Assembly: GCA_963662405.2 (NCBI GenBank)
Contig: CAXXKT010000001.1
Location: 2,656,001-2,720,000 of the forward strand
Origin: Syntrophales bacterium
Lineage (GTDB): Bacteria > Desulfobacterota > Syntrophia > Syntrophales > UBA2210
Direction: 5' to 3'
Length of the DNA: 64,000 nt
Position numbers and translations under genes: made by a program. The notes under the pieces were generated by a model, which did no database searches, was not told the origin of the DNA, and was given only the letters and a program-made list of their open reading frames with translations. How positions within the stretch are numbered: position 1 is the stretch's first letter; every line of letters starts with the position of its first letter. Positions 12,576-51,955 of this stretch are shown one piece after another.

Positions 12576-12727
12576 TTGACATAATATCTTCATGGGGTTA
12601 GTAGGTTATCAGTTTCGTGATTTGAGGAATATTAAATGTATTTTTGAACAGCTTTAGTGTGGGGGGATTATGGTCTGATCATCAAAGCCCTGTTTCTCAA
12701 ATTGAGAGATGGGGTTTTTATTTTTTG
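12576..12727 (+). promoter_or_regulatory. Promoter-leader-terminator element, copy 1 (ahead of array 1)
   Basis: TTGACA-N17-TA...GATTATGGTCTGA...AAGCCCTGTTTCTC/GAGAGATGGGGTTT + T tract. Confidence 0.7.
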
Positions 12728-12794
12728 TCATTGGATAGATTGAAAAGTTAAAACGGCGAAACAAAATTAATACGGGATGTCCTTGGTTATTAGG

Positions 12795-12815
12795 ATCCCA
12801 TAAACATTGTTGGGC
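12795..12815 (+). other. attI-like site 1
   Basis: CCCATAAACATT-G|TTGGGC; TTGGGC complements GCCCAA of the first attC; resembles attI1 CCCTAAAACAAAGTT. Confidence 0.7.
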
Positions 12816-12831
12816 ATGGAAGAGAAGAATT

Positions 12832-13269
12832 ATGATTGAGCACATCTTAATGGCCTTCATGTGGGTGCTCATCCCGGCCACACTCATCGCCACCCTCGTT
12901 CAAAGCGTACCTTGGACGGACAGAATGAAGAAGAACCTCCTGATGTTCTGTTTCATCCACCCTGGTTGGCTTTTCCCCGTAATCTTCCTTTCGGCTATAC
13001 ATATCGGTGGCTACGCAAGAACGGAGATATCCCCCATTCCGTGGCGCTCATTTTCACATGAACTCATGCTACACGACTTCGGTTCGGCTTGCTTCTCCTT
13101 CGCCACCGTGTCGACTGTCTCGTTGTGGTGCTTCTGGACGGGGGCAAACGCGTGGTTTCTTCATCACCCACAGATGGACAAAACGAAGAGGGTTATGGCG
13201 CATGTAATCAACTTGCTCTTCGGGCTCATTGTGACACAACCCGATAACCCGATTTACAGAATACTATAA
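12832..13269 (+). CDS. Cassette 1: small multi-pass membrane protein
   Basis: About 4 hydrophobic segments; followed by attC. Confidence 0.75.
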   Translation: MIEHILMAFMWVLIPATLIATLVQSVPWTDRMKKNLLMFCFIHPGWLFPVIFLSAIHIGGYARTEISPIPWRSFSHELMLHDFGSACFSFATVSTVSLWCFWTGANAWFLHHPQMDKTKRVMAHVINLLFGLIVTQPDNPIYRIL

Positions 13270-13271
13270 AT

Positions 13272-13330
13272 GCCCAACAACAGGCTTGACGGCACGCGAT
13301 AAACCGCGCCCGTCAACCTGAGCGTTAAAG
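13272..13330 (+). repeat. attC site 1 (59 bp)
   Basis: GCCCAAC...imperfect palindrome...GTTAAAG. Confidence 0.88.
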
Positions 13331-13349
13331 CTATAAGGAACAAGATGAT

Positions 13350-48689: not shown

Positions 48690-49303
48690 GACCCGTACGA
48701 TGCCTCCTTGTCGGCTATGATTAGTCGCCACGAAACACAGTACGCCCTTGCCTTGCCGATGGCGTCCACGATCCGTGGGAACACCCTCGCAGACGGCCCC
48801 GCCGGCTATATACATTTCCCAGAAAACATGACGAACCTCTTCGAGTGACGGTACATTCAGCCTGACAAGCCCCGTTCCTTTTTTGCCTCAGTTTCGATCC
48901 CGGTCCCCTCAAGATAATGAAGACGCCGATTTCTCGATTGAGAGAGGGCCTCTCCCCCGCTGGTAGGCACGAACTCTTTTAAAACCGGAAAGCCCTGCGT
49001 ACTCTGAAAATTCGTGGATTCAGACTCAGTCGGCACCAGGTGCTCCGCATGATTGACTCGGTGGATCGATGGTGCGGCGGGTTCCGGCACATGCATGTTC
49101 CCGTTTCATTTCGCCCAGAGCCAGCGGATCTTTCTTTAACCGGTGTCCCTTTTGCTCGTCGAACTTGAAATCTTCCGATGGTATAATTCCCGCCATCGTT
49201 CCCCGTATCACATCCGCCGTGGCGCAGACGTCCAGCGGTTTGAGAGTTCCTTTTCGATGCCGTAATGCGGCATGCGGCGGGTACTGTGGGGTTGAAGGAT
49301 TTC

Positions 49304-49840
49304 CTATTCGTTCAATCTCCGCTTGATAATCTCCTTTGTCATTACCCTTTTCAGTATACCCTTCAGTTCCTTGTCCTCGATCTGAGAGAGGTTCTCTCTG
49401 ATGATCCGCCGGTCCCGTTCCTTGAGGAGTTCCTCGCTGAATTCTGCGGACTGGGTAGATGGAAGGTGCGGTTTCGGCGGGATGTCGCCGATCGAGAAGT
49501 GGATATTGTGTATTTCATCTTTGCCCCACTCGGCGTTGACCTTGTCCATGATCTCCCTTTTGAGAAACCGGAGTTGCTGCATCCACGCCGGGGTCGATAC
49601 ACGTACAGAGAGGGTGTGGTTCTTGAATCTTACGGGGGCCGTCTGAGCCGATATCTGTGGGCCCACCGCCTTGTGCCAGACATCCGTGGCGCGGCAGTCC
49701 AGGGCGTCCAGGTGTATCTTTCTCCTCTCGAGGACCTTCGGCAGAAAATCCCCCAACTTCAGGAGATTCTTCCGGCGTTTTCTGGATCGTCGTCGCTGGT
49801 ACATGGAGCTCTTTTTCGCACAGTTATACCGTCCAGTCAA
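49304..49840 (-). CDS. DUF721/DciA-family protein
   Basis: WHKAVGPQIS.QT.P......L.V.V..PAWMQQL; start uncertain. Confidence 0.78.
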   Translation of the reverse strand: MTGRYNCAKKSSMYQRRRSRKRRKNLLKLGDFLPKVLERRKIHLDALDCRATDVWHKAVGPQISAQTAPVRFKNHTLSVRVSTPAWMQQLRFLKREIMDKVNAEWGKDEIHNIHFSIGDIPPKPHLPSTQSAEFSEELLKERDRRIIRENLSQIEDKELKGILKRVMTKEIIKRRLNE

Positions 49841-49920
49841 GACGGGGATATTATGATAATTGATTCCGTGATTTCTCTGTGTTATGAAACGAAATGAATC
49901 TGAACAGTGTGGAGGAAAGC

Positions 49921-50274
49921 ATGGATCTGGCGAAGATGATACGGGAGATCAAGGCCCACCCCGATTATACCAAGGCGGGGATGATACTGTGCCACAACGG
50001 TGTGGTCAGGGAGACGTCACGTGACGGCAGGCCGGTCAGCGAGCTGGTGGTGAAGGCGGATCGGAGACGTCTTGAAGAGATCATCTCGGAGATAAAGGCG
50101 CGCCCCGGGATTATCGAAGTGCTCGTGGAGATAGAAGAGGGGAGACTCTTCCCCGGCGATGATGTCATGCTGATAGCGATAGCGGGTGATTTCAGGGAAA
50201 ATGTGTTCGCCGCCCTCAGGGACACGGTAGAGGCGGTCAAGGCCGACGTGACGAAAAAGACGGAGATATCATAA
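49921..50274 (+). CDS. moaE: Molybdopterin synthase catalytic subunit-like protein
   Basis: [11 protein letters not shown]...GRL.PGDD...AGDFRE. Confidence 0.8.
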
Positions 50275-50307
50275 AAAGACGAACCCGAAGGACAAAAGGG
50301 TGAGCCG

Positions 50308-51630
50308 ATGAAAAATCCCCGTTCGGATATCAGGGCGATCTTCGATGCGGGACTCGCAGCCGCGGATCCCGGCGAGGCGATCAGGCGCGCCGTCAGACGT
50401 GAAGGAGAACGACTGGAAATCCACGGCGGGACATACGAACTGGACGCCTTTGACCGGATCCTGGTGGTCGGTACCGGCAAGGCCGCCGCGAGCATGGCCG
50501 CCGCGCTTGAACATATGCTGGGGGAGCGCATAACCAGGGGTACCATCACCACGAAGTATGGATATGGATCACCCCTGAGGATCGTCTCCATTGCCGAGGC
50601 GGGACATCCGATTCCTGACGAGGCGGGGGTCCGTGGGTGCCGACGCATCCTCGATCTCCTGCACACTGCCGGCGAGCGGGATCTCGTCCTGTGTCTGATA
50701 TCGGGCGGAGGGTCTGCGCTCATGCCGTTCCCTGCCGATGGTATTTCTCTCCAGGACAAGCAGGAGACGACGCAGGCCCTCCTGGACTGCGGGGCCGATA
50801 TCCATGAGATCAACACCATCCGGAAACATATCTCGGGGATCAAGGGGGGGCAGCTGGCACGGGCCGCCTTCCCGGCGACCCTCGTGACGCTTGTCCTGTC
50901 CGACGTGATCGGCGATGACCTCGACGTGATCGCCTCCGGTCCCACGGTTCCCGACCGGAGCACCTTTGCCGACTGCATCGGGATCGCGGATCGGTACGGG
51001 CTTGCCGACACGCTCCCCCTATCAGTGATCACCTATCTGAGAGATGGGGCAGCGGGGAGACATCCCGAAACGCCCAAGCCTTCCGATCCGGTCTTTGAGA
51101 GGACCGGTGCATTCGTTATCGGCAGCGCTTCCCTGTCACTCGATGCGGCACACGAGAAGGCCCGTGCCCTGGGATACAGCGCGGTCATTCTCTCCTCGTC
51201 GATTGAGGGAGAGACGAGAGACGCCGCCCTGTTTCACGTTGCCGTTGCCCGGGAGATACGGAAATCAGGGAACCCGGTACCGGTGCCGGGGTGTATCATC
51301 TCGGGGGGAGAGACGACGGTCACCATCCGCGGTGACGGTCTCGGGGGACGGAATATGGAATTTGTCCTGGCCGCCGGCATTGCATTGGATGGACTCAATG
51401 GTATCACCGTCTTGAGTGGCGGGACGGATGGAACGGATGGTCCCACCGACGCGGCGGGGGCCGTCGCGGACGATTCAACGGTGCAAAGGGCTCGAGAAGA
51501 GGGGGCTGACGCCGAGCACTACCTCGAAAGCAACGACTCTTATCACTTCTTCGACAAGATCGGGGATCTCCTGAAAACCGGCCCCACCATGACGAACGTC
51601 ATGGATCTGCGGATCTTCCTGGTCACATAG
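50308..51630 (+). CDS. Glycerate kinase type 2 / hydroxypyruvate reductase (TtuD/MOFRL)
   Basis: GTGKAA, ISGGGSAL, IASGPT, GGETTV, GGRN, TDGTDG, TMTNVMD. Confidence 0.93.
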   Translation: MKNPRSDIRAIFDAGLAAADPGEAIRRAVRREGERLEIHGGTYELDAFDRILVVGTGKAAASMAAALEHMLGERITRGTITTKYGYGSPLRIVSIAEAGHPIPDEAGVRGCRRILDLLHTAGERDLVLCLISGGGSALMPFPADGISLQDKQETTQALLDCGADIHEINTIRKHISGIKGGQLARAAFPATLVTLVLSDVIGDDLDVIASGPTVPDRSTFADCIGIADRYGLADTLPLSVITYLRDGAAGRHPETPKPSDPVFERTGAFVIGSASLSLDAAHEKARALGYSAVILSSSIEGETRDAALFHVAVAREIRKSGNPVPVPGCIISGGETTVTIRGDGLGGRNMEFVLAAGIALDGLNGITVLSGGTDGTDGPTDAAGAVADDSTVQRAREEGADAEHYLESNDSYHFFDKIGDLLKTGPTMTNVMDLRIFLVT

Positions 51631-51805
51631 CCGGGCAGGGAAATCTCGACCGTGAGTTTCTGGTAAGAGGGTGCTGTCCTCCTGATAAGAACCTGTGCGG
51701 ATTTGATTGGTCTTGAGCATTCTTATTTAGTACATCTCCAACTGCTCAAAATCGTTTCAGGAGAAAATCGATGATTGCTGATTGGAAGTTTCTCGACAAA
51801 ATATC

Positions 51806-51955
51806 TTGACAATACATGATCATAGAGTTAGCTATATGGCAATTTTGATCTTTACGATTTTTCTGTTTGTGAATGACGTTAACCGTGGGGTGATTATGGT
51901 ATTCTTATCTTGAAGCCTTGTTTTTCGAATAGAGAAAAAGGCTTTTTGTTTTTTG
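51806..51955 (+). promoter_or_regulatory. Promoter-leader-terminator element, copy 3
   Basis: TTGACAATAC...CATAGAGTTA (shared with copy 2)...GATTATGG...AAGCCTTGTTTTTC/GAGAAAAAGGCTT + T tract. Confidence 0.7.

Follow-up and report, generated by a model that had tools for sequence, protein, structure and literature searches.

A large family of putatively portable promoter-leader units ahead of accessory genes in Syntrophales

The 64,000-nucleotide stretch of a Syntrophales bacterium genome analysed here (64 kb, hereafter the window) contains four copies of a repeated unit of ~270 bp overall, in which a conserved upstream region with a TTGACA hexamer is followed by a leader of ~110 nucleotides (nt) that comprises a very short open reading frame (mini-ORF) and a terminator hairpin. 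Two of the copies head arrays of open reading frames (ORFs), a third precedes a single gene and the fourth is degenerate; the genes downstream of a copy are referred to as its cargo. The features of the four copies, together with the scores of a covariance model, R1, built from 29 copies in the genome, and the length of the encoded proteins in amino acids (aa), are as follows.

12576..12611, + strand: copy 1, TTGACA (12576-12581) followed 17 nt on by TAGTAG; putative promoter, aligned with 37 genome copies.
12606..12729, + strand: copy 1, leader RNA with a variable 5' part, a conserved helix region and the terminator; R1 score 104.8 bits.
12670..12678, + strand: copy 1, mini-ORF AUG GUC UGA, after a G-rich Shine-Dalgarno-like run (12661-12666).
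12684..12728, + strand: copy 1, intrinsic terminator, a 16-pair stem and then a U tract, from the terminator scan and pair counts.
12730..12831, + strand: copy 1, post-terminator untranslated region with two modules common to other copies (91 compared), namely a small hairpin with a U run, and TTATYAGGATCC..ATAAACATTGTTG directly 5' of the start codon.
12832..15700, + strand: copy 1, cargo of four same-strand ORFs (145, 250, 226 and 239 aa), the third being DUF4145 / PD-T7-4.
17184..17240, + strand: copy 2, operator-like imperfect inverted repeat with arms at 17184-17199 and 17225-17240 (11/16 complementary) around TTGACA (17221-17226).
17251..17368, + strand: copy 2, leader RNA; R1 score 107.9 bits, fold -33.5 kcal/mol, z -3.75.
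17308..17316, + strand: copy 2, mini-ORF AUG AUC UGA, read from the sequence.
17322..17358, + strand: copy 2, terminator plus U tract, called by the terminator scan with 16 pairs.
17586..23935, + strand: copy 2, cargo of five same-strand ORFs, i.e. a 297-aa PDC-M14A-like, a 185-aa, a 519-aa AAA-like, a 109-aa and an 831-aa DUF4238/SEC-C protein.
51631..51835, + strand: copy 3, conserved upstream region and TTGACA (51806-51811), the left portion of an insertion between two housekeeping genes.
51836..51957, + strand: copy 3, leader RNA; R1 score 76.6 bits, fold, and inverted repeat I3.
51896..51913, + strand: copy 3, mini-ORF of five codons, ATG GTA TTC TTA TCT TGA, read from the sequence.
51913..51944, + strand: copy 3, terminator plus U tract, 14 pairs with one bulge in the fold, not called by the terminator scan.
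52015..53094, + strand: copy 3, cargo, a 359-aa Lcl_C (DUF1566) protein with a signal-peptide-like N terminus; Pfam 8.9e-65.
40680..40797, - strand: copy 4, degenerate; R1 score 30.6 bits, E 4.9e-5.
40027..40506, - strand: 159-aa ORF downstream of copy 4, no Pfam family.

A first-pass annotation of the sequence had placed four copies at these sites and strands; R1 matches each of them and finds no fifth match anywhere in the 64-kb window. The copies align with one another over ~200 nt, and most of the anatomy proposed for them holds, including (i) TTGAC at 12576, 17221 and 51806, (ii) the GATTATG motif, which opens the mini-ORFs MV, MI and MVFLS (each ending in a stop), (iii) a hairpin that is strand-specific through its G-U pairs and displays the compensatory change GCCC/GGGC versus GCCT/AGGC, and (iv) a U tract in three of the copies. 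The hairpin base lies 101-108 nt downstream of the TTGAC (12684, 17322 and 51913). Copy 1 folds as RNA at -30.0 kcal/mol (z -2.38), and copy 4 retains the hairpin, with no U tract, GTG in place of ATG and a diverged 5' part. The identity of the gene after copy 3 as an Lcl_C protein was likewise confirmed.

The count of four is correct for the window, and the genome as a whole carries 56 matches. A profile built from the three good window copies finds the unit at 56 places in the 3.80-Mb, three-contig genome (G000, with C1 and C2 among its contigs; L numbers denote individual loci or distinct copies), and R1 gives 56 genome matches at E <= 0.01, 39 of which score at least 61.8 bits and are called strong copies below. 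Copies are spread across all three contigs and amount to ~50 per genome. R1 matches were found in 30 of 38 genomes and nine of ten genera of the same family, the R1 search of genus g4 returning no element in any of its six genomes; order-wide, 37 of 91 sampled Syntrophales genomes have matches, which reach 100-120 bits in two further families of the order (f20 and f6). An exact-pattern scan, with one genome per species, retrieved 29 loci, nearly all labelled Syntrophales, Syntrophaceae or "Deltaproteobacteria bacterium", and the three under other taxon labels are possibly binning errors. This order-wide spread, with ~50 copies over all three contigs, does not bear out the earlier proposal that the element is shared between host and satellite. 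Two IMG/VR contigs classed as viral (L180 and L181, of 8.1 and 6.6 kb) contain the 3' module of the unit; the ORFs near it gave no Pfam hit, which leaves a link to phages or satellites unsupported, and the contigs may represent phages, prophages or islands classed wrongly.

As the first-pass annotation supposed, the element is unnamed, insofar as no Rfam 15 family matches it at the gathering threshold over the whole window. The sole Rfam match of the window is a tRNA gene at 31295-31368 (+). In sensitive mode, five loci gave only NsiR1, at 23.3-23.4 bits against a gathering threshold of 39 (E ~0.7). Literature searches on small RNAs, terminators and repeats of Syntrophales, and on leaders, attenuation, intrinsic terminators and readthrough in anti-phage defence, listed nothing on this element. 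On balance, the unit is probably a large, lineage-restricted family of portable promoter-leader units.

The anatomy of the unit was derived from alignments of 37 own copies and of 96 distinct copies, plus their upstream and downstream flanks. The unit opens with ~110 nt of conserved, apparently non-coding DNA, the homology often beginning after ...CTAC, at (T/A)ACTNCTCAGAAT, and in shorter versions near TTGAAAGTC. An imperfect inverted repeat, CGATKATTAC..TTG, 21 nt, CAA..ATMATNG, brackets the invariant TTGACA, and 42 of 51 copies retain its 21-nt spacing. Within a copy the two arms match at 7.53 of 16 positions, versus 6.96 +/- 0.15 for arms re-paired between copies (0/1000), a comparison inflated by relatedness; the repeat looks like an operator around the -35 element. 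The latter is a perfect TTGACA in nearly all copies, whereas at the -10 position, 17 nt after TTGACA, the family reads TAGCTA, TACCTA or TAGTGG, with only T-A-N-N-N-R kept and the hexamer fitting TATAAT at just 2-3 of 6 positions. The upstream gene is divergent in 16 of the 39 strong copies and lies at times only 51-108 nt from the TTGACA, which argues for a promoter within the unit, provided that the cargo is expressed. A second, unrelated repeat of ~220 nt, present at G000 C1:316479-316697 and at least eight other places (95-99% between some copies), occurs upstream of some units and elsewhere alone.

The leader RNA comprises a 5' part, UUGAUCUUGA(AC) followed by a variable stretch, a conserved helix region and a 60-nt 3' module. 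For the variable segment, a hairpin was rejected on a mean z of -0.03 (59 sequences); by eye, only the "long" subfamily has a small hairpin of 4-5 pairs there. The conserved helix strand GCUUGUGAACAGCUGUAACC can pair with GGAUUAUGGUCUGAUCAUC..AAAGC to form a 19-pair interrupted helix with a purine-rich apical loop. This long helix, whose structure derives from the fold of a single sequence, is 86.4% paired, with 20 double-change cells versus 11.1 expected (1/500 shuffles), and it competes for the same nucleotides with a local hairpin, GAUUA-UGGUC-UGAUC, which is 93.9% paired with 11 versus 2.3 double changes (0/500) in an alignment fitted to that hairpin. A long-range 5' helix (UGAUC with GAUCA) was discarded for want of covariation, the observed values being reached by 41/500 and 199/500 shuffles.

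The 3' module includes (i) a G-rich Shine-Dalgarno-like run, (ii) AUG-NNN-UGA, and (iii) a terminator, AAAGCCCUGUUUCUC-loop-GAGAGAUGGGGCUUUU and then a U-rich tract, with 15 pairs family-wide. Among the 96 distinct copies the terminator hairpin is 97.1% paired, and 5 of the 15 pairs are changed on both sides, versus 1.3 +/- 0.8 after shuffling (0/500). The unit therefore ends in a genuine intrinsic (Rho-independent) terminator, with both stem-loop and U tract, and for that reason a promoter-proximal attenuator is its best reading. We thus lean towards the earlier proposal of an attenuator-type leader ahead of variable, potentially costly cargo, and towards the unit as a putative portable promoter coupled to a transcription attenuator. 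On this proposal, RNA polymerase would initiate within the unit and normally stop at the terminator, releasing an RNA of ~110 nt, and the cargo, whether accessory or defence genes, would be expressed solely upon bypass of the terminator. Such bypass would need a trans-acting partner that reads the 60-nt module, either a ribosome on the Shine-Dalgarno/AUG site 8-9 nt before the stem or an RNA-binding or antitermination protein.

Conservation extends beyond the terminator and is unequal along the leader. When the 100 nt 3' of the terminator are compared across 91 copies, further modules appear, shared by subsets of copies up to the start codon and exemplified by window positions 12730-12831 and 17369-17585, including (i) GTGAACAGCTTAGATTAATATYG, in 14 of the 91 copies, a repeat of the 5' strand of the leader helix, (ii) a hairpin GGGTGTTATAC..GTATAACACCC followed by CTCATAAA, (iii) a small hairpin with a U run, and (iv) TTATCAGGATCCAGATAAACATTGTTG right before start codons. 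Mean pairwise identity among 90 distinct copies is 48% in the 5' part, 68% in the 5' strand of the helix and 84% in the 3' module, and identity in the 3' module is 0.837 both within G000 and between G000 and other genomes; housekeeping genes inside the genus have a DNA identity of 71-80%. Since divergence within a genome equals that between genomes and the 3' module nevertheless stays at 84%, long-term purifying selection rather than a recent burst is suggested. The pattern indicates that the family is old and that the 3' module is under sequence-level selection beyond the needs of a generic terminator, and the equal upkeep of the 60-nt module within and between genomes points to a specific trans-acting reader.

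The unit points at the downstream gene far beyond chance. When genes are approximated by the longest non-overlapping ORFs, 33 of the 39 strong copies have a co-directional first gene downstream (binomial p 1.4e-5), whereas the upstream gene is co-directional in 23 of 39. The gap to the downstream gene has a median of 98 nt, with 11 gaps of at most 58 nt. These data bear on an alternative that we consider possible though doubtful, in which the units are stand-alone, multicopy genes for ~110-nt small RNAs (sRNAs) acting in trans, and the downstream genes have their own promoters and merely travel along. A promoter-like start and a strong terminator 105-115 nt apart would suit such genes, as would a G-rich loop or 3' module serving as binding platform, sequence-level conservation of the sort typical of protein- or RNA-binding sRNAs, gaps of at least 100 nt to the next gene in about half of the copies, and the weak, sub-threshold score (23 bits) of the 3' module against NsiR1, an sRNA repeated in tandem. 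The orientation bias (33/39), however, speaks against sRNA genes, the 11 short gaps offer little or no space for a second promoter, and the conserved modules extend from beyond the terminator as far as the start codon. A set of fifty near-redundant sRNA genes would also, to our knowledge, have no close precedent. The orientation bias and the post-terminator modules together favour a leader with terminator readthrough, with which a co-made sRNA is still compatible.

The cargo consists of heterogeneous accessory genes, several of which are well-known defence systems. In the own genome it comprises (i) GajA (1e-224, full length), ThsB (2e-111), PD-Lambda-5_A (6e-133) and PDC-S31 (1e-39), (ii) further defence-type genes, namely an HNH/type IV enzyme, Mrr, a PD-T4-6-type kinase and NERD+UvrD, and (iii) HD-GYP (three), Lcl_C (two) and beta-helix proteins (two), along with transport and other genes; 19 of 40 cargo proteins have no Pfam family. 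Within the window, the ORF at 14184-14864 matches the candidate defence family PD-T7-4 (PADLOC 6.9e-23) in addition to DUF4145, and the ORF at 17586-18479 matches the candidate defence family PDC-M14A (6e-23). The 34 cargo ORFs compared from other genomes, 15 of them without a Pfam family, include SduA_C, SIR2_2, KAP NTPase, GmrSD_N, AIPR, DUF6602, DUF4062 and XhoI, which we take to be defence-linked families, beside ordinary genes. Just upstream of two units lie Endonuclease_NS genes (L006:221-1438 and L007:1755-3002), each with a small ORF behind it that lacks a Pfam family; these could be nuclease-immunity pairs.

Many copies before diverse genes, three of which encode HD-GYP proteins, and a bulged conserved region adjoining the terminator would also be features of a new riboswitch class, whose conserved helix region binds a small molecule, e.g. 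a signalling nucleotide, and controls the terminator. GEMM-I riboswitches are multicopy in Geobacter. A riboswitch is nonetheless highly improbable here: the candidate aptamer is a simple, nearly continuous helix with no clear alternative pairing with the terminator, the cargo lacks a common metabolic theme, and the promoter and non-transcribed upstream DNA are conserved along with the RNA, which speaks for copying of the whole unit and not for convergence on an aptamer.

The mini-ORF, placed beside the hairpin by the first-pass annotation, is indeed found there: in 71 of 90 distinct copies a canonical start is followed by a single codon and then a stop, and three more have 3-5 codons; in the remainder, nine frames enter the terminator, five copies are without a canonical start and two were unscored (L023, L083 and the first L096 copy are mis-scored in this count and, on inspection by eye, do have short frames). 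Among the 73 copies scored for spacing, about 11 of them mis-assigned, the stop codon lies 8-9 nt ahead of the stem GCCC in 58, and in the same count codon 2 is the most variable (GTC 39, GCC 14, four others 6). Together with a GGAGG/GGGGG run 5 nt ahead of the AUG, these regularities are what a ribosome-sensing leader-peptide attenuator would display, in which occupancy of the 2-5-codon mini-ORF decides whether the terminator forms. A ribosome terminating at the mini-ORF stop would, by its footprint, reach the stem base.

The pairing data make such a leader peptide rather unlikely, given that the AUG, the variable nucleotide and the UGA are all part of helices backed by covariation. The base that varies most, in the middle of codon 2 (U or C), is the one bulged out of the long helix. 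Across the family, the pair between the CAG and CUG strands is A-U in 61 copies, G-U in 20, G-C in 5 and U-A in 1; in L071 and L088 a change of UGA to CGA is matched on the partner strand by one of CAG to CGG, and in L084 the pair is flipped to U-A as UGA becomes AGA, so that pairing is kept and the stop is lost in all three. Because these compensated changes destroy the stop codon, RNA pairing is likely the selected feature instead of the stop codon. In addition, the positions around the mini-ORF are all equally conserved, which also suggests that the mini-ORF may be incidental, and the frames of nine copies run into the terminator. The mini-ORF is thus present as proposed, but its role as the key feature is not supported; it is probably incidental, and a ribosome on the strong Shine-Dalgarno/AUG site is left as a candidate reader of the module.

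The first-pass annotation had also raised dependence on a NusG paralogue as a point to check. In that spirit, a specialised antitermination factor, either a NusG paralogue of the RfaH/LoaP/UpxY kind or another RNA-binding antiterminator, could load at the unit and make RNA polymerase override its terminator and later ones in horizontally acquired operons. This is unlikely on present evidence. A conserved leader does precede diverse acquired operons and is followed by terminators, sometimes including a second small one, conservation implies a specific reader, and a second NusG-family gene exists (C1:1449233-1449526). The paralogue, however, occurs in most of the 38 genomes, including three of the six genomes of genus g4, where no element was found, and does not co-distribute with the element; furthermore, no ops-like motif was recognised. 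CsrA was rejected as partner, being found in 14 of the 38 genomes and not in G050 or G043, which have 28 and 16 element matches, respectively.

With respect to portability, copy 3 and its Lcl_C gene (~51631-53200) sit between a convergent glycerate-kinase-like gene and glmM. In the congeneric genome G004 the site is empty, and the flanking genes abut with overlapping stop codons (L177 1472-1501). The same glycerate-kinase/glmM site (window 50308-54590) holds 1.6 kb here, a different insert of 1.7 kb in G007 and a 7.5-kb gap in G003. The presence of copy 3 with its gene here and their absence in G004 indicate that the unit travels with cargo into a variable hotspot. No inverted repeat joins the unit ends in the three copies examined, which have only internal ones, and the tail of the copy-3 insertion recurs once only, behind a paralogous Lcl_C gene, which argues against a general 3' end module of the cassettes. 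Of the matches to a putative recombination core around GATTAC..TTGAAAG, 11 lie at elements and 15 are orphans scattered elsewhere, an uninformative pattern.

A selfish or neutral dispersed repeat, resembling miniature inverted-repeat transposable elements (MITEs), repetitive extragenic palindromes (REPs) or Correia elements, with promoter and terminator parts that are incidental, would account for the high copy number, the clustering in variable islands rich in insertion sequences and repeats, the targeting by an IS110-family element described below, and the insertion polymorphism. We regard it as very unlikely in view of the strong gene orientation bias, a 3' module held at 84% despite within-genome divergence equal to that between genomes, and the lack of terminal inverted repeats; the lone polymorphic insertion, moreover, brings a cargo gene and not the element by itself. 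The last two points led to the rejection of a MITE.

The IS110-family element, 1.27 kb in length (322-aa DEDD_Tnp_IS110 + Transposase_20), has five genome copies of ~93% identity. At three units it ends at an identical junction, between ...GGTATCTAC and TACTGCTCAG, ~75 nt upstream of TTGACA, which indicates sequence-specific targeting of the upstream region of the unit. The element is recorded at:

G000 C1:158514, - strand: IS110-family element.
G000 C1:306389, + strand: IS110-family element.
G000 C1:1415746, - strand: IS110-family element.
L004:484-1452: IS110-family element.

An IS3-family element (rve + HTH_Tnp_1 ORFs) lies at window 15807-17023 (-), between the two arrays, and part of its flank recurs at C1:125989-126343 and C2:336763-337125.

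The "cassette arrays" of the first-pass annotation do not hold as integron arrays. A tyrosine recombinase of generic Xer/phage-integrase type is encoded at window 10862-11983, on the strand of copy 1 and ~590 nt before it; this recombinase scores 91.1 bits against a TIGR02249 integron-integrase cut-off of 265, and 56.1 against 435. A 64-nt direct repeat (94%) at 20739-20802 and 23934-23997 lies directly 3' of the 519-aa and 831-aa ORFs, and the second repeat, which starts GCCTAAC and ends GCGTTA, recalls attC; the genome has these two copies only. Integron cassette arrays were rejected on these two grounds, an integrase far below the IntI cut-offs and an attC-like repeat found merely twice.

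Several observations weigh against the promoter-proximal attenuator that we prefer. A search for sequencing runs returned three, from a single study and none recorded as RNA. At the start of the unit, none of the TTGACA sites of window copies 1-3 is recognised as a promoter by a sigma-70 consensus scan, because the -10 position reads TAGTAG, TACCTA or TAGCTA. Within the leader, the long helix overlaps the terminator by just 4-5 pairs and both coexist in full-length folds; an antiterminator search on transcripts truncated before the 3' arm found the 5' arm pairing upstream at 0-12 of 13 positions with nothing consistent, and no alternative antiterminator structure appears clearly supported in these models. 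Downstream, six of the 39 strong copies have no co-directional gene next, and the strong-looking terminator with gaps that are often 100-300 nt implies that some cargo may own promoters and that the unit may be a separate sRNA gene. No candidate trans factor emerged from the 38 genomes, where neither the NusG paralogue nor CsrA tracks the element. Finally, defence enrichment of the cargo is not significant: 8 of 48 cargo proteins, from the first genes of 38 copies plus all ORFs of the three window arrays, have a PADLOC match at E <= 1e-20, versus 10 of 122 control ORFs of at least 150 aa in the same genome, drawn from eight 20-kb regions picked at random no closer than 10 kb to a copy (Fisher p 0.16).

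The known systems closest to the unit resemble parts of it. The trp, pyrBI and erm/vmlR attenuators share a Shine-Dalgarno sequence and a tiny ORF directly before an intrinsic terminator in a 5' leader, but the ORF of the unit has two codons, there is no clear antiterminator, and the stop codon is sacrificed in compensatory changes; unlike these single-pathway attenuators, one leader serves dozens of unrelated genes. RfaH with ops/JUMPStart, LoaP and UpxY likewise involve a conserved leader of acquired operons, downstream terminators and an implied dedicated reader, from which the unit differs in the missing ops-like motif and the NusG distribution noted above. NsiR1 (RF02399), a multicopy cyanobacterial sRNA, is similarly a short repeated RNA, each copy with its own terminator, and is the only Rfam model that scores on the 3' module; the score is below threshold and the phylum different, and the unit is not a member. 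The integron platform resembles copy 1 in having a promoter region before arrays of short, unrelated, often defence-type ORFs near a tyrosine recombinase, but the unit has no attC series and most copies have no recombinase nearby.

In kind, the unit may be described as a putative mobile promoter (PMP) combined with a promoter-proximal attenuator. PMPs are similar upstream sequences before unrelated genes, shared across genera and families (Matus-Garcia, Nijveen, van Passel 2012; PMC3575422); their criterion is an identity of 80% or more across 50 nt or more of sequence preceding non-homologous genes. They have no Rfam entry, and most of their families are pairs (PMC3575422). Several pairs of units with different cargo have 81-84% identity over 172-187 nt, in a comparison not confined to the exact -150..-50 frame of that paper, and copy 2 and C1:158334, again with different cargo, have 83% over 180 nt. 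The unit departs from PMPs in its ~50 members per genome and in being defined by a structured leader with terminator and not by a promoter alone. Correia elements, ERIC and REPIN, named in PMC3575422, are intergenic repeats present in many copies, which can provide promoters or terminators and so change how neighbouring genes are expressed, whereas the unit lacks terminal inverted repeats, is gene-oriented, moves with a gene where seen, and has no cognate transposase identified. For its combination of size, age, anatomy and cargo, the literature searched, with the data tables of the PMP paper outside that search, appears to hold no described counterpart.

Beyond a handful of model organisms, little is known of how bacteria silence many costly defence and accessory genes and still leave them open to induction. 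In an order of uncultured syntrophs, one ~270-bp unit stands before Gabija, Thoeris, PD-Lambda-5, Shedu-, SIR2- and restriction-type genes, and also before genes for signalling and surface proteins. It represents an unusually large and old case of promoter/leader reuse and a candidate entry for an RNA family database, and the IS110 element found repeatedly at one spot is a natural case of sequence-targeted insertion. If the conditional terminator is true, a single RNA module would provide a handle on the signal that switches such genes on. A further-reaching and tentative proposal, to which we assign a low probability, is that the unit acts as the "plug" of a lineage-wide accessory and immune regulon, one signal on the 60-nt module lifting termination at dozens of cassettes. 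Were this so, the signal would be translation status, a dedicated RNA-binding protein or a messenger, and a newly acquired gene would enter the regulon simply by being inserted downstream of an existing unit or by being brought in together with one.

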